A stretch of DNA of 64,000 nt from Phoronis australis (taxonomy: Eukaryota; Animalia; Phoronida). Position 1 is the stretch's first letter; every line of letters begins with the position of its first letter. Under the pieces are notes generated by a model. That model worked only from the letters and a program-made list of their open reading frames with translations. It searched no databases and had not been told where the DNA came from. The stretch covers positions 333,176 through 397,175 of the forward strand of contig NMRA01000397.1 in NCBI GenBank assembly GCA_002633005.1, in the 5' to 3' direction. The translations under genes were made by a program, and so were the position numbers. This document shows, in pieces, positions 1 to 35,827 of this stretch.

Positions 1-2641
1 TGTCATGCCGCGAGACGTCACAAAAGTGTAATTCTGTCGGGCAATGAAAACAAAACGTAAAAATAGTATGATATTTTGCTGAAAGTCATTATAATCATAA
101 AACGATAGACCTACTTAAAATGTAGGCTCTTGCATCACAAAAGAGTGTTGACATTCATCAAATTTCTTATAGCCCTGAGAATGGGTTTAATAAATATAAT
201 TGTGAGCGGAAAGCTCTGGCTTTTTGTCAGTTCATCTTCTGCTAAAATTCCTTTGAGTTAAACCCGTGTTTTTCCTGAATGAAATAAACTTCATTCTAAC
301 TCCACTCTCAGAGTATGTAAATTTCCCAGTGCATTTTCGAAAATTTTCCAGAGTATTAACCTCGACGGCACATTTTCGGCCTTGTTTTACTTACGTGTCT
401 TCATCAATGCCGAAAATGTAAACACTAAAAAGTGAAAATACCTAAGAAAACGATTTATCATACCCAAAGATGACATTTTAGTTACATTTTAAGACCAGCT
501 GTTTTTGGAATTCCGTTGCATGTGAACCCCGTTTAGTAGCAAACTTTGCGTCGTGCCCTTATTTTGTCTGTAAAACAGACCACCCGAGACTCCCTTTCAG
601 ACTAGCACAAGCAATTCCAACGGTCATTGCAGTTTCTGTCTTACTTCGACGGACACAAATTATCTTTGTTTGACTTATATAGTTTCTAGACAGTAAGTCA
701 AATAGGGGGATTATATTTGTAAGCGAGAAGGACAAATATTGATCATGGTAGCATAGGAGACCGCACTTGTAGCTTCAGAGTGATTGCGAAACTGACTTCC
801 GAGAAAAATGAACATTTTTGCAAGTTACCGAGACGATAAAAATGAACTCTACTGATAGAAGATACGAGTTATTAACGCTGTATGTGGAGTCTGTAAGACT
901 TCAATGTAGAGGTAGTAAGCCAAGTTTCACTTCAATCATACAACACAGTTACTGCGATCGCAATGTTTTAAAACACGAATTTCTACGCTATACATCGTAT
1001 TTAGAAATTTTAGGAACATTTAAACAAAAACTAATCGCAGGAAGTGGAAGGCGCGTACAAAAATACGTGACGTTATTTTATTCAATCAGTTTTGCTGTCA
1101 AATACTTCGTGCGACCAGAAAAAAATTCATTCTGCAACAAAACGCTTGCAAAACTGCTGTTGTACATCCTTACAAGAGTTATCACCTTTATTTAAGCATA
1201 TCCTACTCAACTTGGTTAGTGGAGAATGACTATCTACCCATAATGATTAAGTAGTTCCAGAAACCTGTCATTCGCACAAATCTGCATCAAGGTAAATAAA
1301 GGTCACTTTGTATGATAAGATAAACTTTCCATAATTCGCAAACACATTTTGAATTACAGAGTTTTCAAACGATTGATATCTTTCGAAGGCTTAATGACAC
1401 TAGTGCCTGCATTCTTTATGAGTTAGAATAAATTTATCATTCCATGAGTGCACGCCTGTGCCATTGTGAACGTGCCGTCAGCATCCATGCAAGAGAACCA
1501 GGGAGACGCCCCATATTCCAGTTAACACAAAGATTTTTTGATCATTAAATACTGATTGCTTTTACGACCGAAAACTCATTGGTTGCGACGGACTTATGAG
1601 AAGTTATTAACTTTTACCATAGCTATAAAAAGCAAAATCAGTTGTGCGTTTGTGATCAGTCCAAAAGGGCGCAAGAATTGAATTGACTTGAGCTGTTAAA
1701 GGAAATGGACTCCAATAACGGCAAAGAACATGAGACCGATTTTCTGAAGTAACTAAAAATGCCCAATTCGTTTTTAGCCTGTTAACATGGGAGGAATGTA
1801 GCTTTAATTTAAAGTCCGCGTTATGATAACTTCCGAAATGGTTAGCAATTTCATCTGTAAGCTTACCTTAAAATGTGTCGCACTGAAATGTTACCTGTTA
1901 AAATGATACCAAACCTGGTGTTGGCCTATTTGCAGATCTCAAGGAGGAGTTCCCAGTCAACTCTCTAAATCAAACTCATGTCCCACAACCCTTGCCAAAC
2001 CTCAAATTCGGAACAAATTTTGAAAATTACTTGATACAAAATCAGCTAAACGGGCAAGTGTGGCCTAAAATTTAGGTATGTTACACATCCGTAGGATACC
2101 CACCAAGAACCATGATGTCCATTCTGCCAAGTAGTGAATCCTAATTTTACCACTCCAGTGAGACGCCAATGTTGCATGAGCAGGGTATAAAACGAGGATT
2201 GATTGAAAATATCAAACCACGGCTTAGTATACTTTTCAATCTAACTAAAGAACATTGTCTGCAATAGGTAAATGAAGAAACGAAGTGAACATGTAAATTT
2301 TGCCTTGTTCAACTGTCACTGTGTATAAGGGCCACTATCCACTTGTACAACAAGGGAACAAAATTTATTCAACTACTAAATTACGACAATGAAAAAAAAA
2401 TTTTTTTTGAAAAGTACAAACTGGGTGCATTGCTCATTTTTATGAAATTGTTGATGTCAGTGGTGATGGCGATGACAATTTTAATCATGTCAAAAGATGG
2501 TGACAATGGCTACGATAGTTTATTTATACGATTTTAAGTCGATGATATCAGTAATGAAGCTCATGTCTGTTTAATGTCTATTCTTTAGGTTAAGTTAACT
2601 GAGGCTATGTAGTAGCAACAGAAAGAAGGTCGATACAATTG

Positions 2642-3673
2642 ATGGATAAGACGGAACAGCCTGGAAAAAGTCTCGCCATAGAGGCTGATGGTGATGCATA
2701 TAAGGGCTTCCGACACCACAGAAGAGATTTACACCTTCAGCGCCAGTCAATCAATCGGGCCGCCTCGATTGCCATGGACACCATTTTACATAAACAATTA
2801 AAACTGGCAAAAAGATTTTCCGACTTGTACGGCAGCAGATTAGAGAAAAGTGAAACAACTGAAATGCAGCGAAAATTAGATTCGATCGATTCAGAATTAA
2901 AGACTAAGAACGTTGGACATATAAATACTCAGCACATGACACTTCCAGTGGCAATTCCTATAGTGAATATGCAGTCCACAAACAAAGATGGCAACGGAGA
3001 TAGCAACAAAGACGAAAACGATGACTACGATAAAGAGGACGGTGTTGCCTGTAACAGTTACATACCACGCATTGCGCATACTGCGAAAGACATTCTGAAA
3101 AGTAAAACCTCAAAATCGACCATTATCATCACGGGCTCAAGCAGTCATAAAACCCATCCGTTATTCAGGGAAATTATGGACACCACTCGTATACAGAACC
3201 AACTGGTTGCTGACAAATTGAAACATGACGAGTTGTTTCTAAAGAATCGTGTCAAGAGGTGGAGAGCAAATCTCGCGAAAGAAAGAGAAACGTTGGCGGA
3301 CAGATTTCGTCAGGTTTCTTTTACAGATTCTGCAGATGGTGGGAAACTTGTATTGAGGAATACTCGTCCAAAATCATGTGGAGCAATAAAAGTCAAACCG
3401 TGTTCGCATGTTGCTCTAAACACGACTATCAAACGAAGCCAGACGCCGACTCTGCGCATAACAGAAACTTGCAGTGTTGAAGATGTCTTGAGAATTGTGC
3501 AGCCTAAAACGACCACGAGAGAAAAATTCCCGGTTGTAAAATCGGCAAAACCACGCTCGGCTGTTAGGTGGCGAGATGAAAAAGGTGAAAAGTCGCTAGT
3601 CACCAGAACTTTATTGCAAAAACGCCGAGCAGCGTCGGCAATAAGTTATCGGCTTAGGAACAATGTTTGGTGA
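2642..3673 (+). CDS. Uncharacterised basic, largely disordered protein (~343 aa), single coding exon
   Basis: Uninterrupted ~1 kb ORF in AT-rich DNA. ATG at 2642 lies just after a splice-acceptor-like ttctttag ending at 2588. Coiled-coil-like N-half and K/R/S-rich C-half; no recognisable domain. Confidence 0.6.
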   Translation: MDKTEQPGKSLAIEADGDAYKGFRHHRRDLHLQRQSINRAASIAMDTILHKQLKLAKRFSDLYGSRLEKSETTEMQRKLDSIDSELKTKNVGHINTQHMTLPVAIPIVNMQSTNKDGNGDSNKDENDDYDKEDGVACNSYIPRIAHTAKDILKSKTSKSTIIITGSSSHKTHPLFREIMDTTRIQNQLVADKLKHDELFLKNRVKRWRANLAKERETLADRFRQVSFTDSADGGKLVLRNTRPKSCGAIKVKPCSHVALNTTIKRSQTPTLRITETCSVEDVLRIVQPKTTTREKFPVVKSAKPRSAVRWRDEKGEKSLVTRTLLQKRRAASAISYRLRNNVW

Positions 3674-3874: not shown

Positions 3875-5777
3875 AGGAGAATGCCACCCGATTTAATAAG
3901 TCTTTTCACTGTCTTAATCGGTCTATATCCTCATCACCTCGTGTACGGCGGTCGATCTTACCTCGCCGAGAGGTGTCGCGTTAACCTGTGAGGAAGGTGA
4001 GGAAACGACTTACGTCAGTGGTTCTTCGGCAGAGTGAGTGCCGCTATGGTGTGGCGTATCGTTCCCGCTTGTGCCAACTTATGAAGCTGCGAGGAAAGCG
4101 GGTATGTCGTTTTTTCGATTGCCTCGAGAGCCCATAATGATTCGGAAGTGGCTCGCGGTAGTGAAGAGTGAATACTACGCCATTAATACCAAGTATGAGG
4201 CCGTGAAACTTATCCGTGTCTGTCAGTGGTCTGCATTTCGTCGGATCGATTGTTGATCCGTTTTTGATTGTGGAGAATTGTAGTTGGCCATGAAAACTTA
4301 AACAATCACAATTAATTCAAGGCATGAGAACCTGTTTGATAACTGACTCGTTCGTTAGGCTTCTGTTTGGTCCTCCGGTTGTAGGATGTTTTCGCCACTT
4401 TCTTTTCTCAGTCCTAACCTCGTAAGCACACCTTTTTCAGATGAGGTGCTTCTCCAAGAACTCGTTTCACTTGCGGAATTTCGCGCCAGCAAACTCAAGC
4501 GCCAGTCGTTTCGTTATCGTGCAGTTAGCCTGGGCTCACTGACCCCATGACAAGTTCAAACGGTTTTTGGAACTATTCATATGTTCCGTTGTTTGTGCAC
4601 GTTCACGGAGCCTTTCTATTATTTCTTGATCAATGAATTCCTGTGAAACCTAACAATCGACCTGTAAAGTGTTTGTCGGATGAGCTCTCGTCTAAATCGG
4701 GACTGCGAGTTGCCACGTTGACATTTATATTGTGCGTTCTGTTTCAAAATGCCATTATTCTCACCCTAACTAATGGTTATATCAAAACTGAAACAAAGCC
4801 TGTCTCATTAGATACAGTTTGTAATGCCTTAGAGTGTTCGTGAGTGTAAATGTTTTGAGAAGCCAAACATATGGATAAATCACTGCGTTACCATCTTTAG
4901 ATGCAATAAGTCTGTGTTTGCTGACATAAAGCTGTTGTGAAACAACAACTCAGTTTTATATCCTATAGTCAGATGTTAGGGGAATCTTTATTTCGATATT
5001 CATATACGTTATTCGAATCATTGTTACTGTACAACTTTTGCGCTGACGATTCTGTGGAAGGGTAAACTAATTTAGCGGCCCCGACGAGCTAGTAAGTAGA
5101 TTTGCAGTTTTGTGGCTAATTCACCAAAATAATCAGCGTGCACATTTTTTCTTTGGCTCACTGGTATAGTCTTTCTGTGACTGAAGGTTTAGTTTCCAAC
5201 TTTGTCTGGTTTATGTTCGTGATGTCAGTCTTCAGTCCGTGCCTGATCGTGTTCCGAGCCACTGGCCGGGATAGCAAATGTTTTGTGTGTTTAGAAGTGA
5301 AAAAATCGCAAGTCTAAAATTACACGCAGCCATGTTTTCTCCTGTCTGTATTTCACGGAAGAATAGTTCGAATTTATCACCAAGCAGACCCCAAACTCCC
5401 GCGACCGATCTGCGGTAAATTGGCCTACCGAACTTAGTAGGCCACCGTAATTTCAAATACCTAAAATCCGTAACAGCAATATAAAATAACACCTTTGTTG
5501 AAAAACTCGATGTATTTGTAAGGGTTTTTGATGATTTTTAAATCATCAAAAACCCTTACAAATACATCGAGTTTTAAAAAACGATGAATTCTAGCGATAA
5601 GCTGACACCAATAAGCGTGCTGTGAACTGCTGAACAGACTGCATTCGAACCTCCGACGTCATTGGTTAATTTCAACACCTCCGTCTGCCATCAGGTGTCA
5701 GGTAAATGAGCTGTACTTGCTGTTACCGATTGGAAGTAATCAATCTAAATTGATACAAAATAGGTTGGCATTCTCCT
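3875..5777 (+). mobile_element. Non-autonomous Kolobok-like DNA transposon with THAP-domain remnant
   Basis: ttaa|aggagaatgccaccc at 3871-3889 and inverted ggttggcattctcct|tgaa at 5763-5781. ORF 4038-4256 resembles a THAP finger (WCG..SFFRLP..RKWL..RVC). TTAA target, AG..CT ends and THAP are Kolobok hallmarks. Confidence 0.6.
5502..5575. repeat. Perfect palindrome, 36-bp arms with 2-nt spacer
   Basis: aaaactcgatgtatttgtaagggtttttgatgattt-tt-aaatcatcaaaaacccttacaaatacatcgagtttt. Confidence 0.9.
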
Positions 5778-7104
5778 TGAACGCAAACAAGAAAACATTA
5801 CTTTGATGATATTGTACGATTGGTGAAACTAATCCTTTTTTGAAAACAAAGAGTGCTTATTAAATGTTGACTGACATTTGTGAAAAATCAGCTTCATTCT
5901 TTACCGAAGTGGAGCACACGTTGATTCATCGCAGCATTTCATGAATGTATACATTACGATGCCAAGCGTACTTTATTTTTCAGAGACTAATTAACAGACA
6001 TGAAGAAGTAGTACATGTTAACTTAACTCAAACCACTCGTATTTTACACTCATACCCAAAACTGCCGACACCACGAAGAAAAACAATTCAATGTAATCAG
6101 CACTCTCACTGACAGAAATTCTGCCCATAAACCACCGAGCCACAGAGGATCACATGCTTAACGTAAGGTGATATGAATTTCAAACCAATTGTATTTCAGC
6201 ACATTGAAATCAAAATTTTACACTGTCTTTTCTTCTGTTTAGCTGTCAGAAAGGTAAAAACTCAACCACTTGTCTCTATAAAAACTGTCATTAAAATTTT
6301 CTTTACAGTGGCAGGACGTTATTTCTGTTGCCTGAGCATTAACAAGTAAACAGTTTTAAAAATTCATTTGGTTAGCCAGCCATTCCAAAATTTAAGCGCT
6401 TCAATTCGATCTCAGATTATTTAGGGATTCCAACAGAATGTCAAGAATACTTCTGAGTACAGTTTGACACGATTTTTATTTCACATCAAAGCAGTTAGTA
6501 TAGGGGAAAACTGAAGCTTCAACTTTAAGTACCTCCAGACTACAATAAGTAATCGGAAACTTTCTAAAGTTAATTAACTAAACTCTAATGTTCAGACGCT
6601 CCAAGTGTCAAACTGTGAATGGTTAACTTGCAAAATTGCCCCCGCGAGACTGCAGAGTAACAATGAAACAATTAAAGTAATTGAACAACATTAAGATAAA
6701 GCAAATACCACTACCCCAAAATTATTTTCGCACTTTTTCAGTCCACTAAACTCGTCATTACCCAGAACTACCAGGTATCCAATGTTGCAGACGTCATTGT
6801 TGCGATATAGGCATTGATTTATTGTCATAAAATGTCCCAAACTACCTAATAACCTTTTAACTACATAATAATAAAGCAAAAATGGTTCCCGGTGATCAGT
6901 GCAGTGGGAACACCTGAGCTGCGTGCTCACGTTGTACCATACTGCCTACAACTTTACTTTTCATAAACCATCTAATTCGCGCTACTAACTACGTCTCTGT
7001 ATCATTCGGAAATATCAGAATTTGCTTAGTAACCTCTGACAAAAAGTATTCATTTTTGAAAGAATTGCAGGCGTCGTACTACTACGTCTGTTACAACAAG
7101 GTAA

Positions 7105-7751
7105 CTAATGTAAATTTCCGACGATAGCAGTCGCTATTATCTTCTTTGGGTCTCTCATCATGGTGTAGTGATCTCCGTCCACCTCAACTACTCGAACCGG
7201 CTTGGAACACAACCTTTGGGAACCGTAGTCACGTCCATGGGCTTGTATTTCAGCTAGGGTCTCGGCCAGTGGACCGTCAGTTAAGAGTTCTGTGGCGCGA
7301 ACAAATGTTACGTTGTCATTGTAAATTGCTGAAGGACTGTACGAAGCATAGTTTTTCAGAGTTCCTCGGAAAGTCGAAAGTCCGGTCTTCAAATCTTCTT
7401 CGTTTAATCCTTTCTCTTTCCACGTGTCTTCAAACCACTGTTCAAAATTGGAAAGTTGTTCTTCAGAAGACCCTTGGATTTTTTTATAAGTGTTGGTGAC
7501 AAATTCCGGGGTTCCATCGAGAAGAACTAACGTTTCCGGTGTGCGGTTGACTTGCTCAAGCTTGATCGCCATTTCAAAGGCTATGACGCAGCCAGACGAA
7601 TAACCAACCAGTGTGTAGGGTGTAGACAAATTGAAAAAAGACAACTTTTTCATTCTATTCACATAGATATCGGCAAGCTGAGATACAGACTCGAAGGGCG
7701 TGGTACCTTCCAAGAAACGGAAAGCGTAAACTGGGTGCCTCTTTAGATGAC
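7105..7751 (-). CDS. Terminal NRPS exon: C-terminal part of the thioesterase domain
   Basis: After acceptor tttttttcttag it reads (G)HLKRHPVYAF...LVGYSSGCVIAFEMA...LLDG...VDGDHYTM; Ser/Asp/His triad motifs of a type I TE. Confidence 0.9.
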
Positions 7752-10700
7752 CTAAGAAAAAAATTATGGGATGTAAGAAAATGCACGTTTCCTGCACTTT
7801 GAATCTCAAAATACCTGCAGTATAACTTACCCTTTATTTTCACTTGATCACTGCTTGACGAAACACAAGCGTTACTGTGTGTTATTTCATTAGCCTTTCT
7901 AACTATTTTGTTTTATCAAAACATCATCATTATCACCAGAATTTGTTTTCGCCAAATGAACCGTTTTGATTACCTATAAGGATGTACACTATTATTTTGT
8001 AGAATATTCTGAGAAAAAACTTTTTAAAGCCGCTTCAAATCCTGCCATATGTAGTGATTACGTATGTGCATTCAAACTATCGATAAACCTGAGAGTAAAG
8101 GGACAGCTAAGTGAACCTTCTTAAAGCCACAATTAAACATACTTACCAGCGACATAGGCGTACGAAGATGTCCCACCATCACTAGCGTGAACACAGATGA
8201 CTGGCATCTTGTCTTCTTCGCCATCATTGAGACACACCAGCATATCACCATCGTCGTTTTTCAACTGCGCGACTGCAGCAATATCTACTAGTGTTTCGAA
8301 CTGCAGTACGTCACCTAAATTGAATATCAGCCCTCTCTTTTCACCGAGAGAAACAAGACTGATAGCCTTGATCGATGTTCCTCCAAGGTCAAAGAAAGAG
8401 TGGTCAAGTTTAATGTCGTCAACTTTCATTCCAAGAAGTGTGGCCCACATGTCCCGAAGAATAACCTCTTTGTCTGTTAGTTCTTCTTTTATTTTACTAT
8501 ATTCTTGCCAAGCGGGCTTATTCAATTTTGACGGTAGATTAGAAGCAGTTTGCAATATATCATTCATTACCTTTTTGTCACAAGCCTTGATCTCGTCTAC
8601 CGGCAAAACTATTGTGGAAGTATTGTCACATTGGCACATGGTCTTAATTTTCTCCAGGATGAAGGAATTGATGTTTAGACGAGGCGAAACAAAGACACAT
8701 CTCATTTTTTCATTTTGAGCAATGAAACATTCATTCAGTTCGTCAATATCTCTCAGCTCCTCTGGACATGTATCACATTCTTTATCTGCCATGATTATCG
8801 TTTCACCGCTTCTATTTGTCTGTGCAACAACGCCAGAGAAAAATTCGTTTTCATCACTTTGATGAATAAACAACTTTCCAGGGACGCCAATCGGGCATTC
8901 ACGTCCACGGTGGTCTTTGATGCGGTACACGTGTTCAAAAGTATCTTTATAGGAAGAGTTAGTGTCGATCGATTGGACAATATCGATATTAATGACTGAC
9001 CTCATGTTGTCAGAATGTAGTATTTCGTCCAATGCGTTGTCTAAATGAGTCAGTAGTTGAAGCGCAAAATCGTCACTTATTAAATTGGCGTCGTACATAC
9101 ACTTGGCCATGAGATTTTCACCGTCGTCGGCGAATAGAACTCCCAGTGGGAATTGAACCCTCTCATACCCTTGGATGTCCGTCATTTCAATTTCGGGGTC
9201 TGCAACATTTTCAAGCGTGGGGTAGTTTTCATAAGTAACCAGGGTATCGAACAGATTTTGATCTCTTGGAAGTCCACTCCACTTGCGTATATCGGCTAGA
9301 TTACTGTGATCGTAAGCCATTATGGCGGCTTGACGGGCTTGAATATCCGTTAGCCAATCAATTAACGTTACACTTTCATCAGATGGTATGGGAATTCGAA
9401 GAGGTAACGTGTTCAACAGTAAACCAACCATATCTTCAATACCCTCTACTTCAGCGCCACGGGATGCCATCACAACAGCAAAAACCACATCAGTACCAAA
9501 AGTGCTGCAGTAGCGATCCAAAATTAATGCCCAAGCACCGTACATAACTGACGTCGTAGTCAAAAAGTTTCGTCGTGCAAATTGCTTCAAATCTCCAATT
9601 TGGAGAGAGAAAGTACGCATAACATCCCTGTCGTCTTGTTGGTTAGAATTTTTAACGATCTTTAAGTTCTTTAAGGACAGAAATCGTTTTGGTTGAAGAT
9701 TGTCTAAATAATCAGACCAGAAATTTTGCGAAACTGACATGTCATGATTCTTACAGAAATCCACAAAAAGCCGAAAGCTCGGAGCAGGTGAAAGTTCTTT
9801 CGAATGGTAAACGCATAAAACGTCTCTTAAAACAAGCGGTCCTGACCAGCCGTCGAAAAGAGCGTGGTGAAACGTCCAAATAAACCTATAAATTTCTCGG
9901 TCAATCTTCATCAGGGCAAAGCGCATGAGATCACCATTCATATTAAAACCCTTCGCCCTATCAGCTTCCACAAATAGCATTTCCTGTTCGTGTGGGTGCT
10001 CCCAAACCCCAACTTCCCACTCTGGGTTTGCATTTCGTCGAACAACTTGTCGCAACGAGTGGTTCTCGGCATCAATTACGAAACTTGTTCGTAAAGCAGA
10101 GTGATGGTCTATAACTTTGCCCCATGCAGACTTAAATCTTTCAATGTCTAGTCTCCCGGAAATATGTAAACAGTACTGCACCAAATAAGAAGATTTGTCT
10201 CGAAGGAGCGAAAAAATAAAACCCTCCTGAAGAGGCGTACAAGAATAAATATCTTCAACATCTTTGACTTTGATGCTTGCTGCTTTCAATGTGGCGTCGA
10301 TCAAGGCGAAGTTTGAAGCAAGAGATAAATTATCAGAGCTTATTTGAGTACTATCTAGCTTTAAGCATTTGACGATGTTCTCTGTTGCCGTTTTCCACCC
10401 GTCGGCCAGTAACTTAATGGTTTCTCGTCGATGAAGAGCCTTGCTAAACAGAAACAAACCTTGCAAGCAACCATTAGAAATGTCGCACTCGATGGCTAAA
10501 TTATGCGAAATTCTTTCATCCTTGCACTGGTTGTTATAGTTGTAATCGCCATCCGCACATACTTCCCACAAGCTATTCTTGCTAGAGAACTGCGTAGCAC
10601 TGCCATGGTAATTAAAAACAACATCGCATTGTTGATTGAATCTTGGATCAGAGTCCTTCTTAAGAAACTTCATGACGCCATAAGGCATGCCTTTTTGAGG

Positions 10701-13700
10701 AATGTTTCTGAGGCGACGTTTTATTCCTTCTAGTTGCTTCAATGTATCGTGAGTTCTGCCATCAACCACCAAAGTAACGGGATACATCACAGTGAACCAA
10801 CCGACAGTTCGAGAAAAATCTAGTTTGTCAGTCCATGATTCTCTCCCGTGCCATTCCATTTCAACGGACAACGAAGATTCTCCCATGCACTCGTTGTATG
10901 CTGTAATGAGAGCAGTCAAAAGGACGTCACTTACCGATGTATGTTCGCTACTATGCGTTCCCTTGAGGCTGAGTAGCTGATTTGTTGTACTCTCGTCGAA
11001 GCAAATTTTTTCTAAAGTGCGAGTTTGACACGTAACTTGATCCCTATTATAATCCAAGAAATCAACCTTTAGAGGACTGCTCTTTTCTAATGCCGGCCAG
11101 TCCCTGGTTGAAACGGACAGAGCGTAGTCTGACTTTAAAAACTCCGACCATTCCTTAAAAGACGTTGTCTTTTGAGGAAGGACACCTCCACGGCACAATG
11201 TCTCCAAATCCTCCAGAATAATTTGCCACGAAACAAGATCCACAGCCATGTGATGTATGGTAATGAATATGTACTGGCAATTGCCTTCTATATCGAACAA
11301 TCCGACAGCCATAAGTGGGCCTGACTTCAGGTCGAGTGAGTTTTGAAGTTTAGTGATTTCCACAGCCACTTGATCTTCAAGTACGTCCTTGTGGATTAAC
11401 TTTGGAATCGGGGTTTTCGAGACGGGCTGGATTTCCTGGATCACTTTTCCATCATCACAAACAGTGAAAGAAGCTCGTAGAATATCATGATGGAGAACAA
11501 GAGATTTGATAGCATTTTGGAGGATATCTGGCTCAATCATAAGCAAAGGACGCAATAACAACGACTGATTAAAACAGTCACGATTACGCAACTTCAAGTG
11601 AAAAAACCATTCCTGCACAGGAGTGAGAGGCACGTTTCCAGATATTTCAATATTTTTGACCGTATTTGTTGGCATGTTAGAATGAACAAATTTTGCAACA
11701 GTTGCAAGTTGGGTCAAGTTTCTCGTCTGGAAGACATGTTGAACCGTGAAGCGCAAATTACGCTTTCTTCCAAGAGAAAATACTTTCATTGCTGAAATGG
11801 AATCTCCACCTAAGTAAAAGAAGGAGTCACTAGACTTAATTTTCGATGGATCTATTTGGAGGACTTCACTCCATATTTCAATCAGCAGTTCCTCCTTCTT
11901 GGTCAGTACTTCATGTTGAGTCAAATTTGGCGCCGGCAAACTTTTGTAGTCAATCTTCTCTGCCGTTGACATGGGGAATTCCGAGAGGGGAACAATCACG
12001 GACGGAACCATATATTTCGGAAGCTTATTTTCAAGTTTCTTTTTCAAATGAAATACACCAGCACCACCAATATCTGGTGTAACATAGCCTACAAGTACGC
12101 CATTATTCACTACTGCTGCAGCGTTCTTAATGCCGTCTTGCATTCTCATAGCGTGGTCAACTTCGTCTAGTTCTACACGGAATGCTCTTAGTTTTACCTG
12201 CCTATCTTTACGACCAAAGACTATGATTTCACCATCTGGAGTCCAACTTCCCCAGTCGCCTGTATTGTACAACCGCCCTTCACCAAAAGGATTTTTAATA
12301 AATTTTTGGTAAGTTAGATCTGGTCGTTTAAGGTAGCCTCTAGCAACACCATGTCCACCAAGAAACATAGTACCTTTTACCCCGATTGGAACCGGTTTTA
12401 AGTTGTCGTCTAGAATATGTACTTGGCAGTTAATGACTGGTTTTCCAACTGTCACTCTGGATTTTGTATTTGTTAAGCCTATAGTGCAAATAATTGTGAT
12501 TTCCGATGGACCATATTCGTTGTACAATTCTGCATGATTTTTCCATTTAGCTGCAACGGATTCCGAGAGTATTTCCCCGGCCACAGATATCTTTTTTAAA
12601 TTTGAGAAGTCGTCTGGGTCCAGTGAAGCTAAAACAGATGGTGTCATCATTGCAAAGTCCACCTTTTTTAAAGTGTTCACATAATTTAGTTCTCTCTGCA
12701 CAAGTGTCGCCCCGGTTGTTAATGCCATGAATACCTCTTGATACGCAGCGTCAAACATTATGTTGAAGAAATGAGTAATCCTCATTCCACGTCTGATGTC
12801 ATGCGCTTTGCAAGTTTGTGGAATTAAACATTCGCAACCCCAGTGATTCACCATCACTCCTTTCGGCTTTCCAGTCGTTCCCGACGTGTAGACAATCCAT
12901 GCCAGATGTTCACTTTCTGCAATGTTCTTCAAGTTCTGATACTCAGACTGGTCAAATTGATCGTCAGAAAACCTTGCAGTATACTTTTCTACGTCAAGCA
13001 CAATGATTTCACCGTTGAAATTTTTCAAAATGCCAGTTGCTTGGATTTTTGCAGTAGTTACTACAATTTTACATTCAGCATCATCAAGCATAAAGTGAAT
13101 GCGATCTTGAGGAAGTGTCGCTTCTATGCAAACAAATGCGGCTCCAGACTTCAAAATACCAATTTTGGAGGCTATAAATTCTAAATTACGTTCACCAATT
13201 AGACCAACTGCTGAGTCTGGAACTGCACCAAGCACTTTAAGTTTCCGTGCTAAGCTATTACTTGCCGCGTTTAGTCTCCTGTAGGTAATTTGCCTTTCCA
13301 TTTCTTCTACAGCGATTAAATCTGGCGTCAGCTCTACTTGTTGCTCAAACTGCTGATGTATGCGTAATTTAGAATAGTCTCCAGTTTTGTTGAATGTCAT
13401 AATGAGCTCCGTTTGAGAGGGAGGAAGAAGATCAAGTTGGCACATGGGAGTTTCCATGTTTGTGGTAAGTAATTCAAACAAGTACACTAGGTGTTGACTC
13501 ATTCTTTCAATTGTGGTACGACTGAATATGTCTGTGTTGAAAACGAAGTGTCCACTCAATTTTCCACTACTTTGCCGCAAAAATTCTAGATTCAAGTCGA
13601 ATTTTGCTGTAAACTGTTCGAAGACTTGTGCTTCCATGGAAAGACCATCAGCAAATTGTCTGCTTGGAAGATCTTCTTGTAGAACAGTAGCAGCTTGAAT

Positions 13701-16700
13701 AATAGGGTGGTATGAAGTGTCTCTTGGAACATTTAACGATTCTAAAATCTTTTGAAAAGGAACATCTTGATTCTCCAATACCCCTAGCATCAAATCTTTT
13801 ACTTTCGTTAACATCGAGTGGAACGAAGCTTTCCTTTCAAACTGCACTCGGAGAGGGAGTGTGTTCACAAAATAGCCTACTATATTTTCTGTGCCAGCAT
13901 TATGCCTACCAGAGAAGAATGCTCCGATAACAACATCATCAGACTGTGAATAAATGCGCATCAACAATGAGAACATGGTGGCTAAAGCGGAAAATAGGGT
14001 TCCACCGCATTCTAAAGCACACGCCACCAACTTTTGAGTGACACGATCTGGTATGTCTATGAAAACAGTCGCACCTTGATAGCTAGGAATTGCAGGCCGC
14101 GGGCGATCAAGTGGCAAATCCAGCACGTTGCTGACGTTTTGAAGTTGTTGCTTCCAAAAGCCAAGTTGTCTCTCCATTTCTTTGCAATCCAACATTTTCC
14201 TCTCCCAGTTGCTGTAGTCAATATAGTTTAACTTCTGCGGAGACAGTTTGAGCTGAGTGTTATTCAAGCGTGAGGAATAACATTCGCTTAACTGGTCAAC
14301 AATTATTTTCACAGAAGCTCCATCTGTTACAGAGTGGTGCATAAACATACCCAACTGGTGGTCCGAATCAGACAGCTTCACAAGAGCAAACCGCAAAAGA
14401 GGACAAGAATATAAATTAAATGGTAATGAAGCTTTTAGATACAAATACTCTTTTGCTTTGCGTTTACTTTCGTGTTGTCCGATGAAGTCTTGGAAATCAA
14501 ACTCAAGCGAGCAATCATTTGCTGGCTTAACTATTTGAAAGAATTCGTTATCCTCAGATCTTTTAAAGTATGTGCGAAAAGCTTGGTTCATAGTTGATAC
14601 ATCATTCAAAGATTCCTTCAATATGTCGACGTGCAAGGCGCCATGGAAGTTTAGGATGACCACTACATTGTATACAGGACTATGAGGTATTAGTTCATAC
14701 AGTAAACACATTTGGTCTTGCCTGTATGATGCTTTAGCTGTTATTACGCTGTTGTCATCGAACGGACACGTTTTGGGAATAAATGTGTGTACCTTTGAAC
14801 GAACTTGCGGAACCAGTATTCTATGGCACATTTCTGCTGAAAGTTCTGCAGGTGTAGATAAGCTCATTATATCTGCCATGCTTACTTCCACGCCGGAGGT
14901 TTCTGCTAGTAAGGATTTTAAGCTGATGGCTAGAAGTGAGTGCCCTCCGAGGTCAAAAAAGTCATCTTCCATGTTGAATCCTGGATCCACAACTTTCCTG
15001 AAAGCATCGAGTACGATGGATTCTAGGTAATTCGAAGGTTGTTTTCCTTTATAATGTGTAGTTTTAGGCTTAAACTTTGGTAGGGCTCTTTGATCAATTT
15101 TCCTATTGGCTGTCAAAGGAAACCGTTCCAGACAGAACACAGTAGTAGGCACCATAAAGCTAGGTAATTGCCTCTTTAAGCGAGATATTACATCGGATGA
15201 TGTGATGTTCGTACTTGTGAGAACGTATGCCACAATGTACTGACCATCTTGAACTGTTACGTGAACCTGGTTAATACCTGGTTGTTGCTCAATAGCAGTT
15301 CTGACCTCATCGAGCTCCACACGTTTACCTCTTAGTTTTATTTGATCATCCATTCTGCCAAGCACTTCGATTTCTCCATTTTCCAGCCACCTGGCTAGGT
15401 CACCGGTTTTGTACATTCGTCCAGCACCAAACGGGTTTTCAATGAAGGCCTTTTCTGTTAAATCTGGTCTATTGTGATATCCTTTACCAACATTAACACC
15501 GGCTATGAACAGTTCTGCGGTTACGTTTACAGGAACTGGGTGGAGATTTGAATCTAGAATAAAACTCTTTGTATTTGGTAACGGCTTTCCAACTGTCACT
15601 CTTTTGTNCAAAAAAGTCATCTTCCATGTTGAATCCTGGATCCACAACTTTCCGGAAAGCATCGAGTACGATGGATTCTAGGTAATTCGAAGGTTGTTTT
15701 CCTTTGTAATGTGTAGTTTTAGGCTCAAACTTTGGTAGGGCTCTTTGATCAATTTTCCTATTGGCTGTCAAAGGAAACCGTTCCAGACAGAACACAGTAG
15801 TAGGCACCATAAAGCTAGGCAATTGCCTCTTTAAGCGAGATATTACATCGGATGATGTGATGTTCGTATTCGTGAGAACGTATGCCACAATGTACTGACC
15901 ATCTTGAACTGTTACGTGAACCTGATTAATACCTGGTTGTTGCTCAATAGCAGTTCTGACCTCATCGAGCTCCACACGTTTACCTCTTAGTTTTATTTGA
16001 TCATCCATTCTGCCAAGCACTTCGATTTCCCCATTTTCCAGCCACCTGGCTAGGTCACCGGTTTTGTACATTCGTCCAGCACCAAACGGGTTTTCAATGA
16101 AGGCCTTTTCTGTTAAATCTGGTCTATTGTGATATCCTTTACCAACATTAACACCGGCTATGAACAGTTCTGCGGTTACGTTTACAGGAACTGGGCGGAG
16201 ATTTGAATCTAGAATAAAACTCTTTGTATTTGGTAACGGCTTTCCAACTGTCACTCTTTTGTTTGGCAGTAACCTGCCCGTGTGCGATATTACACTGCAT
16301 TCTGTTGGACCATATCCATTTAAAAGGATTCTGTCTTTACCCCATGCCTTCACCATTGCTTGGGAACAAGCTTCCCCTGCCGCTAGGACAACTTTGAGGT
16401 TAGAGTAATCGTTAGGATTGAGAATATTCAAAGTCGACGGTGTGTTACCAACAGCATCTACTTGTTTCATTGTTGTTGTAAAATCACCAGACGGGAAGAC
16501 AAGGCATCCACCATGACATAGGGTGGTGAAAACTTCACCTACAGTTCCATCGAACCCAACAGCAAAATACTGCATCACTTTTGTCTCCGGCGTTATGTTG
16601 AAAATTCCCCCAGGTTTATACATTATGAAATTGATGAGCCCACGATGTTCAACCATGGCACCTTTTGGAAGGCCTGTTGTACCCGAAGTGTAAATCATAT

Positions 16701-19700
16701 AAGCAAGATCACCAGATTCATTCACAATATCTGGATTGGGTCTGCCTTGCTTCACGTGAGCAATCAAATCTGCACTCCTTAAACTTACATACTTGATGTC
16801 GTTGGGCAAAGTTTGCGTATTAAAAGAAGATGCGTTGATGGCAAAACGACAACTACAGTCTTCTAGTAAAAATGCAATACGATCAGGTGGCTGAGAGGCA
16901 TCAATTGACACAAATGCCCCCCCTGCTTTCCAGATGCCTAACATTCCAGCAGCTAAAGTCATCTCGCGGTCTAATATCAGTGCCACCTTTTCTTCGCGCT
17001 TGAGCCCAAGGTTTCGCAGTTGATATGCAATGCTATTTGCAGCTGCATTTAGTTCGTTATACGTAATAGACGCATTTTCTTTCACCAATGCCAGTTGACC
17101 TGCATTTGACAAAGAGCTTACAGTATTTTCGAACAAGTGGTGAACGCCTTTGATATGCCCTAACCGTTTTTGATATTCATCAGAAGGGTTAAACTTTTCC
17201 AGGGTAAGGTGTTCTTGGGGGCTAACTATGTCAAATTCGCTAAGCAGCGTCTCTTTTGAGGAAGACGCAATCCATGCCATGGCTCTCTCAAAATGACGGA
17301 GTGCATTTTTTAGCCCAGTTCCGTCAATAATGCTTGTATCAAAGATGGCTTTGATTTTAATAACATTTCCATTATTAAGGATATCTAGTGTAAGTGGATA
17401 TTCTGTAAATTCGTGATCATAGACATCACTAACTCGAAATTGCGAAGATGTCAGCGCAGATGTCTTTTCTCTGTTAATTGTGTTATATGACATTACTGTT
17501 TCAAAAAGTTTGTGATCCGCGCTTAGCCCACACCATTTCATAATATCAGTCATAAACGATTTTTCGTGAGCAAGAATTGTAGTTAGCTTCTCCTGTATGT
17601 ATTTCAGCCATTCAAAAACGTGGTGATCATGAATCTTCACCCTCATCGGTAATGTGTTTATAGTAACACCCATAAGTCTGTTTACGTCTTCAATATGAGA
17701 TGTTCCTCGACCAGAAACAACGAATCCAAAAAGAACATCGTTCGGATCACATGAGTATTTGTTAACCACAATAGCCCAAGACGCGCACAGAATCGACACT
17801 ACGGAAATATCATGGCCTTCGGCATATTCGTGCAGCTGGTGCATTGTTGCATTTGTTATTGTGAAGTGAATCACTGCGTTACCCTTTCTTGGACTTTCTG
17901 GAGGCAAAAAGCGAAGATTGCCGAGTTGGGGCAATTTATGCATTTCTTCAGTCCAGAAACCTTCGGCCTTATAGCTACGCTGCTTGAAGTCAACCACTTC
18001 TTCAACATATTCTCTAAATTGTGGGGACTTGAGCAACACACCATCGTTGTAAGCTAGCAAGACTTCTTGAAGAACATTGAAGCATGTTAGGCCATCTACA
18101 ATACTATGGTGTGAGGTCATAATTAAACGATGCTTACTTTTTGAATGCTTAAAAAGCGCAAATCTTAACATTGGCTCCGAGAAATCAAACCCGGAATGGC
18201 GATCATAATGAAGGAACTGACTTTCTTTTTCAACTTGCTGCGCACCTGTGAGATCTGATAAATCCTCCACTATCCACTGGGGTTCGAATGTCTTGCGCAC
18301 AATTTGCATGCATCCGTTTAATCTGTCAATGATAAAGCGCGTTCGAAGAATATCATGTCGTAAAATTACTTTCGATATACTACGTTGGAGTTTGTCGTCG
18401 TCAAGATATCCGTCGATTGTACAGGACCGTTGTATCAGGTAAGCAGAAGAATCTTGTAGAAGACTAAACAGAAACCCTTCTTGCACAGGGGTACATGGGT
18501 ACATGTCAGAAACATGCTCAGCTTGGAGGTCTATCTGAGCAAGACGTGTTGACAACACGTCATCAAGGTGATTTTGTGACAGCTTCAACAATGGAAAATC
18601 AGACGGCGTATATCCAAAAACGTCTCCTTTTGTACAATGCAGCACCAGATTTGATAAGTTTGCTTTCCATCTAGCTATCCACGACTCAATAGTACTTTGC
18701 CTGTGGATATCTGTAGAGAAGAACATCTTCATGCGCAGTTTCTCATCCTTTAGAAAGCATTCCACAACAATTTTGTGCGTTAGGTTTTCATTTATATCGA
18801 ACTCATCTTCTCCGCAAGGATAATCGTCAGCAATGTCCCAAAAGGCGCTTTTTGTCTGAATCTGATCAAATCGACCGTAATAGTTAAACAAGACATCAGA
18901 CTTTGGGACTATGGGCTCTTGTGAAGTCTTTATGAGCTTCAAAAGCCAAAATGGCATTCCACGTTTCGGAATGCTTCTTATGTTTTCTTTGGTGTACTTC
19001 AACGTTCTTTCCATTGTTATTTCTGTCGAAGACCCTCTGCAAACTTCCAATTGTAGAGGGAACATTGTCATAAACCAACCAACAGTACGAGAAATGTCAA
19101 TGGAGTCATCCCATGGCTCACGTCCGTGAGCTTCAACGTCAACTTGCAGCTGTTTCTTTCCCATTGTTTCGTTATATGCTAAAATCAGAGATGCTAACAG
19201 AAAATCGGTCGTGTTTGTTCTAAAGGCATCGTTGGCCGCTGAAATCAAATCCGTTGTAATTTTTTCACCCATTTCTTCAACGACAACTCGCCTAGACCTT
19301 GCTGTCGGAGAAATAATATCTGCAAAATCTGTAATCAGTGGAATCGTTTCTTTAGGACTGGGCCAAACGTTGTCTGAAAGTTTTTGGTTTTGGGCGTATT
19401 CTCGTAAAATCAATGACCAATTTTGAAAAGACATGCTTACACTCTCTGTGTCTTGTCCATTGTACAATCGCTCCAAGTCTTCCAAGATAATTCGCCATGA
19501 AACGAGATCAACGACTAAATGGTGGACAGTGATGAAAATCCTTTGCGTGGCACCGATACTAAAAAGGCCGACAGCAAGGAGAGGTCCAGTCAATATGTTA
19601 AGGGAGTATTTCAAAATACTAATCTCTGTGTCAAGCACGTCGCTAGAATCGAGATTTTTGGCAACAAAGGAGGTACAGTGAGACTCGTTTATCCTTTGCG

Positions 19701-22443
19701 TCCATGAACCGTCTTCATTTTCAGAATATGTGCATCGCAACATTTCGTGATTGGAAATTAACTGAGATAATGCCTTCCTAAGTTGCTGTTCATCAACTAT
19801 TGTCTTTGGTTTAAGAAGAAAAGACTGGTTCCAGAAATTTGGAGTCTTAAATCTCTGCTCGAAAAACCAAATTTGCGCGGGAGTGAGTTGAACAAAAGGA
19901 GATGCGGCCAATCTTTCTTTGTCTTTGATTCGATTGCAGAAGCGAAGAGGCTTGGCAGTCATTGCGAGCTGCCCTAGAGAAGGATGTCCCAACACTTGCT
20001 GAACAGAGAGGAGCAGATTTTTTTTCCGAGCGGCAGAAACAACAGTCATGGCAGAAATAGAATCACCACCGACTTCAAAAAAAGATGAGTCGGGAGAAAT
20101 TTTCTCAACTGGTACTTTAAACATTTCACTCCATATATTAGCTAGGACTAATTCTCTTGGTGTGAAGTGAGTGTGTGTTGAGGATAATTCTTTTGAAGTT
20201 TGAATATTTAGATTTTGTTTTTCTAATGTACTTCGTGAATCAATTGTAGGAAGCGACTTGCGGTCAACTTTTCCGTTTGCTGTAACTGGAAATGAATCCA
20301 TCACAATGATAAATGCTGGAATCATGTACGATGGCAAAACAGTGCCAATTTGTGCTTGCAAATCAGAGACATCTAGTTGTGCATTTTGCTCGTGAATGAC
20401 ATATGCAACGAGTTTTTCCTGAACTTTCAAGACTAACGCGTCCAAAACGCCTTCCTGGCTCACTAGCGTTGATTCAATTTCCGATAACTCAACGCGGAAA
20501 CCACGGATCTTAACTTGATTGTCAATGCGCCCACAGAATTCTATGTAACCTTCAGGATGAAATCTTCCAAGATCACCAGTCTTGTATATTCTTTCTCCTT
20601 TGATGAAGGGACTTGGCAAGAAACGAAACTTAGTTACCTGGGGATTGTTCACGTAACCCATGGCAACGCCCATTCCACCAATATACAATTCACCTATAAC
20701 CTGCATCGGTACAGGATTCAAAAACTCATCCAAGACATAATACTTCTGATTGGTAAGCGGCATACCATAAGGTATGCTTGTCCAAAGTGGGTTGATATCT
20801 TTTATTGGGTAATAAATCGACCAGATGGAACCTTCTGTAGCACCACCCTGACTCATTACTTGAATTCCAGGAACCATGGTTCTCAGTTGCGAGGGAAGAG
20901 CCAGTGGGATTCTGTCACCACTCAGGATGACAAGACGTAGAGTTGAAGGCAGCATGTCTCCTTCAGAGTAAAGGTATTCCATGAGGAGACTAAGAACAGC
21001 TGGTGCTGAGTCCCACATCGTCACATTATGGTTCTTCATTGTGGTAACCCAGCAAGCAGGATCTGGGATGCCGCGTACTTCGGGAACTGGAATGACAACC
21101 GTGCCACCTGTAGCAAGCATGCCAAAGATGTCGTACACAGAAAGGTCAAAACTGAGTGAAGCAACCAAGAGGATTTTGTCCCTGGCCGTCACAGAATACC
21201 TCTCGTTTATGTCCAGTATTGTGTTTACTGCATTTCTATGACTAGTCATGACGCCTTTTGGTCGACCAGTTGAGCCAGACGTATAGATTATATAAGCAAG
21301 GTCATCAGGTTTCACTTCAGGTGTGTCGTAGTCAAACGCGTCACCTCTCTCGGACAGTACATCATCCAAACACAATACACTATTGCAATATTTCTTCAAA
21401 ATGACAACCATGGAGGTCTTTGCCAGAATGAGAGATGCTTCTGAGTTTTCAATCATGTAGCTCAATCTTTCCTCTGGATAGCTCGGGTCGAGTGGAAGGT
21501 ATGCAAACCCAGCTTTCATGATAGCATACAGACCAATCACCATTTCTAATGATGCGTCGACGCTTACTCCAATCACGCGACTCGAGTAGTCATTTCCCAT
21601 GACAGACAATATTTTCTTGGACAACATAGTTGATCTGTATTCTAACTCTTTGTATGTCAAACTCTGGTCAGCGCATGCTACTGCAACAGAATTAGGATCG
21701 TGGCGGGCTTTCTCTTCAAAAAGCTCGTGCATCAAACATTCACTTCTTTTATAGTTCTCGGTGGTGTTGTTGAACTGAAGGAGTGTTTGCTGTTCACTGC
21801 ATGTGAGCATGGGGACACTCAGAAAGTTTGGATTGCTGTTCTGAAGATCAGGGATTTGCAACAACAGCAGAAGAAAGTGGTCTCGGAACTGCTCTAGCAA
21901 ATCATCGCGGCATCGGTGGTCATACCGAAGTGTGCATGCGCAGTCACAAGGAGATCCAAGAGCCATGGCAAGTGTTATGGCGTATTTTGAAAGAATGTTG
22001 ATCTTATTGATTTCTCGTGGCAAGTTGAACGCCACGAACGCATTACGGCTGTTACGACTGTACTTTGCATGAGCTATAGGGGACTTGTCCAGTTCCAATC
22101 TCAAAGATTTGAGAAGATCCGGTAATTGACCGTTGACCCCACAAGGCAAGAAGACAGGAGAATACCCTTCGACTTCGCTGGCATCTCTTCCATTGTCGAT
22201 AGCTTCTGGGTCATGTGTGTCAGCCTCAGCAAATGCTAATTCAATTGATGGCGATTTCTCTGCACCCTCGTAGCGGATAAGCACAGCGTAGACTAAACAC
22301 AACAAAGCGTCTATCGTACTATAGCCTAGAGGCGAAGCAATGTTTGCTAGAATTGTACAAACTTCTCTTCCGACGTTGAAGGATAACTTTTTGTGGTATT
22401 CTTCTTCAACATCTTTCGGCCTGTTGTTTCCTTCTTTTGACAT
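7105..22443 (-). CDS. Multimodular non-ribosomal peptide synthetase, C*-A-T-E-C-A-T-C-A-T-E-C-A*-T-TE (~4762 aa after removing the duplicated overlap and the intron)
   Basis: Three A-domain P-loops (YIIYTSGSTGRPKG, YMIYTSGTTGLPKG, WIVYTSGTTGKPKG). Four carrier motifs (GGDS, GGHS, GGDS, GGTS). Two E domains (HHLVVDLVSW/EAHGRE/RTVGWF and HHMAVDLVSW/EWHGRE/RTVGWF). Three C domains (HHSIVDG, HHSVTDG, HHALFDGWS). TE with GYSSG and GDH. join(22443-15609, 14953-8147, 7751-7105) = 14289 nt, in frame. ATG 22443 follows an acceptor tttcag, so an upstream exon is likely. Confidence 0.93.
7752..8146 (-). other. Spliceosomal phase-1 intron (395 bp) within the NRPS TE domain
   Basis: Donor GCTG|GTAAGT at 8146 and acceptor ttttttcttAG|GT at 7752. 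Splicing gives in-frame ..SSYAYVA-G-HLKRHPVY.., uniting the two halves of the TE. Confidence 0.9.
14954..16262. repeat. 654-bp direct duplication either side of a single N (unmerged contig overlap or two haplotypes)
   Basis: 14954-15607 and 15609-16262 are near-identical (about nine substitutions seen) and abut the N at 15608. Collapsing them restores one ORF. Confidence 0.9.
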
Positions 22444-23324
22444 ACCTGAAATGACAGTAATATTCCAAGCAACAACAAACAATGGTCTTGCAACAATGTA
22501 CTCGTGTAGGACGTGCATGCAAACATATGTGAACAAAAAGAAAATGACAGTTTATTATATCGAATCAATATACGATTACTTGGTGAAATGGACTTTCTCC
22601 TCGTATGTTGCCGTGTCGTGAAGTTATATAAACTTTTTGTATACTCGCAATAGGTCGTTTTTTCGTCCTATCGACATGAAATCCACGTTAAAATCTCGAG
22701 GTCAATTTTTGGGGGGACAAAATCGGTCCAAGAGACGGCGCTGTGACGGTCATTTTTAAAGAAATCAACTTACCAAGGTTTAGCTCTGTGGTTCTAATCC
22801 ACAAGTCTGTATTTACACAAATATACATTTTTACTCATCAAAATTATATATTTTCTAAAATTATAAGGCGCGTAGAATTTGATGCTTGACCTGATACCAA
22901 TCTTGAAATAACTGAGTTATATGACCATGTATTTTTAGTAAAATTTAGCTAGAACGAAAGGAGCATTCATAGCAAAAACAACTGGTCGAATTTTGTTTAA
23001 TACAAATGCTCTCAAATACAATGTTACGATTTTGTAAATCATCTTTTCGTTTTCGTTTTCGTTTCATAGATCTTTTCGTTTTTTCATAGAAATCTCGAAA
23101 AAACAATTGTTGTTAATCTCTCATTTAAATGTGGAAAAGTTTAAAAATAGTTCTCTTAAGAACAAGTTAAAACTTGTTTTAATTTGTTAATAATCTCTTA
23201 TGCTAAAGTGGAACAGTTTAAAGATAGCTCTTAACTGCGTTTTGGAGAACAGATTCATGTTAAATGTTATGTAGGACATGTCAATAAAAACAATGCCGAG
23301 CTTAAACTGGCTTGTATGTTTCGG

Positions 23325-23462
23325 CAATGACGTCATTGGATGATTTCAATACTTCCGTCTGCCGTCAGGTGTCAGGTATTGCAACCGAACGTGCCGTTAT
23401 CGAGTAGAACTACTCGATCTAAATTGATACAAAATGGGTTGTTTTTTGGGTGGCATTCTCCT
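23325..23462 (+). mobile_element. Second copy of the Kolobok-like right end
   Basis: gacgtcattgg..ccgtctgcc.tcaggtgtcaggta..atctaaattgatacaaaat..gggtggcattctcct|ttaa matches ~5655-5777, and its last 15 bp are the perfect inverse of 3875-3889. Confidence 0.7.
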
Positions 23463-34711: not shown

Positions 34712-35827
34712 CTTGCTTTTCACGGTAAGTGAAGCTGATCAGACGAAATACAATGAACTATAGTTTGATACAAGCCAGTCAGTCAAATAGCGGCATTTGG
34801 CAACAACATTTATCTAAAAGCCTCATGCAGAGTCACATCTTAGACCAAATTCAAACAGAAATTGTACAGCATTGCGGTGCAGTATTTGATCACAGGAACA
34901 ATCGCTAAACTACAATTTTGAATGCTCGTTTCTTGACAAATTCCAAAAACGGTTCCATCGGGTAACTTACGTTACTCTATACTAAAGCGCCAATAAACCC
35001 ACCTTCCACTCTCAAAAAATTGTGATTTACACCACTTACGTTATAAGATTGGTCTCAAATTGTTCTTTAGCCACATCGGACGGAGTTATGGGCTTGACCT
35101 AGCAGCAAGTCACTGCTCAAAACGAGGCTCTATAAGTTGGCTTGTCACCACATCATTTTATTCGCCCGAGCATGTACTCTAGTCCGTCAGTTCTTCGCAA
35201 ACCCAGTGACCATTGAGTAAGGAGCAAGTTGAGACCAAATGTGCAGCGGTCTGGTCTGGTCAAAAGTTCGCTTATTGGACCGAGAGCGGGCTGATAGCCT
35301 CTTTAATGTACGAAAACAATGTTTTTGGTTCGGCGGCAATGCTCTAAGTTATACATGTATCGGGCGATGCTCGGCGATAAAGCCGATTGACTTCCATTGC
35401 GATGGCTTAGAATGTTCAGGCGATTTTTATCGGGTCCGAGGAGTAGGTTCCAACTGTGAACCTAAATCTAAGCCGCAATTGGTTCTGATGCTTAACTTGA
35501 GTTTCAGAGCAAAAAGGATTACATCGGACGATAATCATATGGCGTTTAAAATCGGCTACAAATGCTCCACCGGGACAGTTTAAACAGTATTTTTGACGGA
35601 CAAGTGTCTGAAAAGCTATTAAGCAGGTGACGGTAAGCAAACTTCCTTGAAATGATGTTCCATGGTCTCAGCTAAGATTATAAATTAGTGCAAACCAAAG
35701 ATATTAGCAAAGCTTAATTTTTGCATTAGACCGAATTACACAGTGACATTCGAATCTCGCTGTATTTACTCGCAATGCCGCAAAAATCGTTCGTATGATT
35801 TATATTTTTTCAGGTGCATTACATCCA

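Follow-up and report, generated by a model that had tools for sequence, protein, structure and literature searches.

How does an animal come to carry a nonribosomal peptide synthetase (NRPS) whose releasing thioesterase (TE) is interrupted by an intron, and where did the enzyme, the TE and the intron come from? The question is raised by a 64,000-nt stretch of contig NMRA01000397.1 (assembly GCA_002633005.1, Phoronis australis; positions 333,176–397,175 of the forward strand), which we call the window and to which all coordinates refer; the NRPS gene lies on its minus strand. We give about an even chance to the following answer: a spliced invertebrate NRPS with a body of the type found in early-diverging fungi, whose TE was recruited from a fatty acid synthase (FAS)-type gene of the host, probably together with its intron.

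The thioesterase intron is removed in RNA

The long minus-strand frame closes at 8133, five codons past ...SSYAYVA and just beyond the first TE strand, as a sequence-only reading of the window had noted. That reading joined the frame to a downstream exon by a GTAAGT donor and a pyrimidine-rich AG acceptor, and both are present. The donor begins at 8146 and the acceptor, a T-rich tract followed by AG, ends at 7752, which defines a GT-AG intron of 395 nt (8146–7752, minus strand, phase 1). Once it is removed, a single frame leads past GYSSG (7605) and GDH (with its His codon at 7170) and closes at the stop codon 7105. The GC content of the intron is 0.33, compared with 0.42–0.45 in the exons. 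Of 154 nearby GT/AG pairs, 52 would likewise leave the TE open, so that RNA reads are the real test of this particular splice pair.

RNA was examined over 6300–14900, using three raw-read runs picked by species label (X2–X4, 18–19% of each read) and contigs from a second study (X1, which contained 0.09 of the words of the window). The only joint listed in this region runs from 7749 to 8145 and skips 395 nt (CT..AC, cut +2). It is carried by four of the 192 reads placed in X2, two of 117 in X3 and three of 112 in X4 (9/421 in three runs), and one of the six X1 contigs has the same 395-nt splice. In all nine spliced reads the first mate lies on the plus strand, so that the RNA derives from the minus strand. 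The feature is thus a real, ordinary spliceosomal intron of the major (GT-AG) class, and the RNA-seq comparison across 8147/7751 that the sequence-only reading had proposed bears out its claim of an intron inside the TE.

Retention at 8146, which that reading took as a possible refutation, was found in part: splicing occurs in all three raw-read runs, but X4 also has intron-internal reads. In the bin 7735–8021, which is mostly intron, the depth is 2.1 in X4 (four reads at 7831), 0.2 in X2 and 0.1 in X3. The sense reads in X4 indicate some retained or unspliced RNA in one of the three runs; such RNA, with its frame stopping at 8133, would encode a TE-less protein. A branch-point scan gave consensus-like matches only at −142, −168 and −385 from the acceptor. 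The intron ends carry no informative repeat, and no second copy of the intron was found within the window. The transcript level is low, and read depths of mostly 1–5 over the NRPS region count against our answer.

Kinship of the NRPS body

The gene encodes adenylation (A), carrier (T), condensation (C) and epimerization (E) domains in the order N-region-A1-T-E-C-A2-T-C-A3-T-E-C-relicA-T-TE, that is, three A, four T, three C and two E domains besides the relic of a fourth A. The four carrier serines, five HHxxxD motifs and the TE triad are intact. Judged by these catalytic motifs in its A, T and C domains and by its release domain, the gene is a multimodular NRPS.

Homologue searches with a 2,400-aa query against target proteins of up to 4,290 aa gave matches of 28–35% identity that are mostly bacterial, as are the raw match lists overall (24–40% identity). 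A bacterial genome scan matched 35 of 63 stretches, at best with 40%; one metagenome scan matched none of 60 stretches and another a single one of 83 (37%). With C4-relicA-T4 as query, 150 giant NRPSs were retrieved at 25–32% identity, none of them a close orthologue. Among 389 proteins, however, the best match for A1, A2, E1, E3, C2 and C4 is ORX93211.1 (P0248) of Basidiobolus meristosporus; A1 is 49% identical to the A1 of this protein, compared with 40% for its best bacterial-genome match.

A tree of 147 domains places A2 and A3 in a 37-row clade whose other rows come from chytrids, Dimargaritales, Basidiobolus, Calcarisporiella and Aphanomyces. The spacer between motifs A4 and A5 measures 77–81 aa in all 37 rows of this clade, 78 aa in A2 and A3, and at least 85 aa in the remaining 110 of 110 rows. 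A spacer survey (941 measurable of 1,188 domains) found 63 domains from 22 proteins at 74–82 aa; 18 of these proteins come from fungi or from the oomycete, and those domains of the remaining four that were tested lie outside the clade. After removal of the deletion columns, A2 and A3 together with 38 fungal/oomycete domains make up a clade of 40 rows (Shimodaira-Hasegawa (SH) support 99; 98–99 across three trees, built from subsets of 80, 36 and 29 rows picked by score and name). Forcing A2 and A3 among the seven top-scoring non-clade domains costs 92.7 log units and is rejected by the approximately unbiased (AU) test (p-AU 0.0003); the seven were chosen by score after earlier trees had been seen, and two of them are named bacterial.

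The C and E trees agree with this placement. C2 and C4 belong to a fungal/oomycete clade (99), C3 groups as sister with the one C domain of its kind in ORX93211.1 (93), and E1 and E3 lie in a eukaryotic clade (89). A1 falls in a separate, cysteine-type clade together with A1 of ORX93211.1, so that both genes contain the same mixture of parts. Best matches to ORX93211.1 are colinear for eight of the 12 matched domains (A1, E1, C2, A2, T2, C3, A3 and T3). By these comparisons the NRPS body appears closest to enzymes of early-diverging fungi, not to bacterial ones.

Several results weigh against a fungal source. The protein searches were length-limited or dominated by giant NRPSs, E3 and C4 best-match the first, non-colinear domains of ORX93211.1, A3 departs from the Basidiobolus group in three trees, and known animal NRPSs are included in none of the trees. 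A tree in which the 38 fungal/oomycete domains form a clade with the NRPS domains outside it is not rejected (p-AU 0.67) and is better than the quick free tree by 12.9 log units. This last topology is also what old vertical inheritance would give: the body would predate the split of animals and fungi and have been lost in most animals, and the TE and its intron would be later additions by the host. End branches of 0.6–1.1, a length also seen between fungal phyla, would suit such an age, as would the breadth of the short-spacer clade, which spans chytrids, Zoopagomycota and Calcarisporiella. The consulted parts of PMC10531068 argue that the scattered animal NRPSs are not necessarily all transfers, and passages of PMC2823734 date some fungal NRPS subfamilies before the fungi or early in them. 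We nevertheless regard vertical inheritance as unlikely, and prefer a fungal transfer only because no other animal, and no unicellular holozoan, is represented among the named matches.

The short-spacer clade does move between eukaryotes, which is a further point against descent by inheritance: the NRPS of the oomycete Aphanomyces stellatus (P0253) nests among chytrid NRPSs (SH 98). From this position it is likely a fungus-to-oomycete transfer, of which a literature search gave no report. A fungal transfer into the animal would mean that the body passed long ago from a Basidiobolus-like fungus into the animal lineage and that, measured against ORX93211.1, an A-T-E-C unit and the greater part of the last A disappeared and a TE was added.

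Origin of the thioesterase

A PDB sequence search with the TE returned 22 matches, of which the top ten are animal FAS at 40–48 bits; the others reach at most 29. The closest structures in both sequence and fold are the TEs of human (4z49, 3tjm) and pig (2vz8) FAS, which share the GYS, DG-P and DY..C..GDH stretches with the NRPS domain. Identity is 25–29%, and the NRPS TE differs in its shorter lid and in its place behind a peptidyl carrier. A model of the TE from an alignment of 30 NRPS proteins has a predicted local distance difference test (pLDDT) score of 85.5 (32.5 for the single-sequence fold). Foldseek places human FAS TE within the top five matches of this model, and VIA-align ranks it first with Z 19.2 (rmsd 2.9, 201 aligned), compared with 16.5 for the best polyketide synthase/NRPS TE. 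As a control, the bacterial-type TE of P0162 was searched in the same way; its best match is an NRPS TE (86.5 bits), and FAS matches over 49 residues only.

None of the 22 inspected clade proteins scores against this TE. Four of them end in another hydrolase (FSH1-like by eye; PF03959 for P0146), the others in E or C, or are incomplete. We consider it probable, from the sequence matches and the fold model, that the TE is of animal FAS-type origin.

On the other side, the P0162 TE scores as high against this domain as FAS does (50.8 bits, human FAS reaching 48.2 on that scale), the Atlas look-alikes of the TE are bacterial thioesterases, and the lack of a similar TE in the clade may be one of annotation, since many clade models are partial and that of ORX93211.1 stops within its last T. 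The first two results, together with an identity to either TE type of only about 26–32%, would suit a fungal-type body whose TE is the ancestral NRPS TE of bacterial type, which the fungi lost or replaced and into which the intron was inserted afterwards. The PDB match profile, however, is unlike that of the bacterial-type control, and the fold ranking favours FAS even with the NRPS-TE alignment; an ancestral TE is, in our judgement, rather unlikely.

If the TE came from FAS, the intron may have come with it. No other coding intron is confirmed in the 14.3 kb, and this one lies within the FAS-like domain that the fungal relatives lack, which suggests that it was not inserted later; we think that it was probably brought in with the domain. 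FAS genes of molluscs are intron-dense throughout, according to the part of PMC10764717 that describes them.

Gene structure and transcript ends

As assembled, the large exon consists of two frames, 22551–15493 and 15677–8133, split at a single N (15608). The N is flanked by two 654-bp copies (14954–16262) that are 98.6% alike and differ at nine positions, six silent and three replacing; they are likely the unmerged ends of haplotype contigs and thus an assembly artefact. With one copy removed, the large exon (8147–22445, minus strand) is 13,644 nt long, and the coding sequence of 14,289 nt specifies a protein of 4,762 aa. The single ~13.6-kb exon described in the sequence-only reading therefore holds once the duplicated overlap is deleted, and not in the assembly as it stands. 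Read coverage of the exon was examined over 8147–14900. At its downstream end, 8147–8204 encodes the first part of the TE; the last coding exon (7105–7751) contains the FAS-like TE core with Ser (GYSSG, 7605), Asp (7518) and His (7170).

Upstream, a 5′ acceptor AG ends at 22446, two bases ahead of the ATG at 22443, and one consensus donor lies nearby at 22773; by sequence, 22446–22773 is a candidate 5′ intron. At the other end, the 3′ untranslated region (UTR) extends from 7104 at least down to the bin 6300–6586, where the sense-strand depth (2.6, 2.0 and 4.9) is similar to that of the coding part. The AATAAA at 6823–6818, read earlier as TTTATT at 6818–6823 and proposed as the poly(A) signal, is thus not the sole or main end of the transcript: sense reads continue past it, and other hexamers lie at 6480, 5977 and 4992. 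A 31-nt element of the 3′ UTR (6878–6908) is common to many other transcripts, on both strands.

Among the listed sites at which RNA reads differ from the assembly, 24 coding differences were classified as 13 silent and 11 replacing, after exclusion of 14 sites from paralog reads and three non-coding sites. About one silent to three replacing changes are expected without selection. Silent changes exceed replacing ones in the reads (13 vs 11) and between the 654-bp copies (6 vs 3), and the NRPS is under purifying selection. Divergent reads with loose ends occur at 10769–10856 and 12183–12215, and most of their changes are silent or conservative; in X2 such reads make up 19–20 of 26 at 10776–10821. 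These divergent reads indicate at least one further expressed NRPS paralog under the same species label.

Bacterial donor, symbiont contig and genomic setting

The sequence-only reading had seen in the large exon and few introns a horizontally acquired gene that later gained introns. The intron count does not show this, and the A, C and E trees are against a bacterial donor. Direct transfer from bacteria followed by intron gain would suit the uninterrupted 13.6-kb exon, the mostly bacterial raw matches and the bacterial rows in the cysteine-type clade of A1. It is at odds with the rejection of a nesting of A2 and A3 among the top-scoring non-clade domains (p-AU 0.0003), with their shared deletion and with the congruent C and E trees; ORX93211.1, moreover, combines A1 and A2-type domains in the same way. 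We regard it as improbable.

Two degraded elements of the window bear on the host. A single-exon Toll-like receptor (TLR) remnant at 32450–34800 (minus strand) has a signal peptide, leucine-rich repeats, a transmembrane segment and a TIR domain and is broken by many stops and frameshifts. A search with its TIR domain found no match among 74 candidates. At 43500–49400 (plus strand) lies a degraded Helitron with Rep, PIF1 helicase and endonuclease domains and an observed/expected CpG ratio of 0.51. Such a receptor gene and an endonuclease-bearing Helitron we take to point to an invertebrate animal host. The NRPS contig shares a repeat with the TLR contig (at 4795–4907 and 29491–29607, respectively), the GC of the NRPS region (0.39–0.44) is similar to that in the rest of the window, and the gene is present in four RNA runs of two studies (2015 and 2026). 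The gene is likely resident in an invertebrate genome; that it resides in a eukaryote, as claimed at the outset, agrees with the spliced reads and with both elements. That the contig comes from a symbiotic fungus or protist and was wrongly scaffolded with animal DNA is very improbable: the fungal kinship, the single-N gaps between the NRPS and TLR contigs and the choice of RNA runs by species label only would fit it, but the repeat is common to both sides of the gap, the GC is like that of the rest of the window, the gene occurs in four runs of 2015 and 2026, and its 31-nt 3′ UTR element is common to other abundant transcripts.

The NRPS gene is flanked by a 113-bp direct repeat (5655–5767 and 23329–23441, 81% alike). 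Its convergent neighbour at 2590–3673 (plus strand) is an open exon of 356 aa behind an AG acceptor, with no Pfam match. Additional assembly gaps, adjoined by repeated sequence, lie at 28742, 54573 and 52644–53249.

Domain architecture and predicted product

All domains are encoded on the minus strand. The putative start ATG and an N-terminal region of ~230 aa (21742–22443) have no Pfam match, and tests against shuffles gave no significant match of this region to the Basidiobolus N-terminus. A1 (20242–21741, cysteine-type clade in the trees) has the pocket DLYDISQIW and is followed by T1 (GGDS) and E1 with intact HHxxxD (18592–20166), and by C2 (17197–18516), which after an E domain is probably of the D-donor type. 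A2 (15727–17151, pocket DGGGLAGVI) and A3 (11928–13367, pocket DAQMSAEII) are the two domains of the short-spacer eukaryotic clade; between them lie T2 (GGHS) and C3 (13392–15032), the latter presumably of the L-donor type. T3 (GGDS) and E3 with intact HHxxxD (10353–11903) precede C4 (9003–10262, HHxxxDG intact). In place of a fourth A domain there is a 175-aa relic (8478–9002) with one A-domain motif left: a 19-aa match to this motif has E 0.001 among two targets, is not significant against shuffles, and the relic has no Pfam match. T4 (GGTS, 8262–8477) retains its serine.

The pocket residues of A1–A3 agree with no reference tested. Three of nine positions in the A1 pocket are off the code of its relatives P0066 and P0069, whose type of code we take to specify cysteine. 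An ACV synthetase was considered and ruled out: ACV synthetases have three A-T modules and a single E directly before the TE, whereas the present gene has two E domains, each followed by C, and its TE after T4.

The peptide product is a prediction from these domains. A1–A3 would load three residues, of which E1 and E3 would invert the first and the third, and C4 would join the resulting D-L-D tripeptide to the fourth unit, carried on T4. Modules that lack an A domain are known to be loaded by another A domain or in trans, and the T4 unit, with no working A of its own, could be loaded by A1–A3 or in trans. The FAS-like TE would then release a short linear D-L-D(-X) peptide by hydrolysis; splicing would be required for the TE-bearing protein. 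A role of the peptide in defence is our guess, by analogy with the rotifers treated in parts of PMC11258130. A fuller version of our answer we put forward more tentatively, as possible rather than probable: the host took in a fungal-type, intron-free body for D-amino-acid peptides, capped it with a host FAS TE and its intron and expanded it into an expressed family, and the animal makes D-amino-acid peptides related to the cyclic peptides of Basidiobolus.

Comparison with known systems

ORX93211.1 shares the arrangement N-region-A(Cys-type)-T-E-C ... A-T-C-A-T-E-C with the present gene, at 31–49% identity in the A, C and E domains. Unlike the present gene it contains an extra A-T-E-C unit and a fifth A domain that is intact; the protein model breaks off inside T5 and has no TE. 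In the relevant portion of PMC7466969 this protein is hypothesized to be a cyclopentapeptide synthetase, and the gene equated with it is described as having four modules, N-methyltransferases and a TE; this is at odds with the five A domains, three E domains and no TE that we find. The NRPSs of chytrids, Dimargaritales, Calcarisporiella and A. stellatus share the short-spacer A clade and the clade of C domains that follow E, and differ in their C-terminal ends as described above. A kinship of the A domains with those of GliP, SirP and ChNPS12, in the fungal ChNPS11/ETP/ChNPS12 group of PMC2823734, is conceivable.

Animal NRPSs as such are already known. The survey sections of PMC10531068 cover rotifers, nematodes, a springtail ACVS, lancelets, echinoderms, molluscs and seven phoronid clusters, and the gene described here may be one of the antiSMASH clusters listed there; for such clusters the consulted text and table say nothing of architecture, introns, E domains or kinship with fungi. 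A literature search that mostly left subscription journals uncovered, and is weak for that reason, found no report of an NRPS in an animal that is of the chytrid/zoopagomycete type or carries a FAS-type TE. What is unexpected is the eukaryotic pedigree of the enzyme, together with a release domain that is likely host-derived.

Peptides with D-amino acids are commonly ascribed to symbionts; with a spliced and expressed NRPS that contains two epimerases, an invertebrate would be able to produce such peptides itself. The chytrid/zoopagomycete kinship of this NRPS makes the question of where animal NRPSs come from, as raised in PMC10531068, testable as fungal transfer versus an enzyme older than the animals. 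If the TE is indeed derived from FAS, it shows how host parts can be joined to a foreign assembly line, and it is a caution that an intron in a transferred gene may have been imported with a host domain and not gained.

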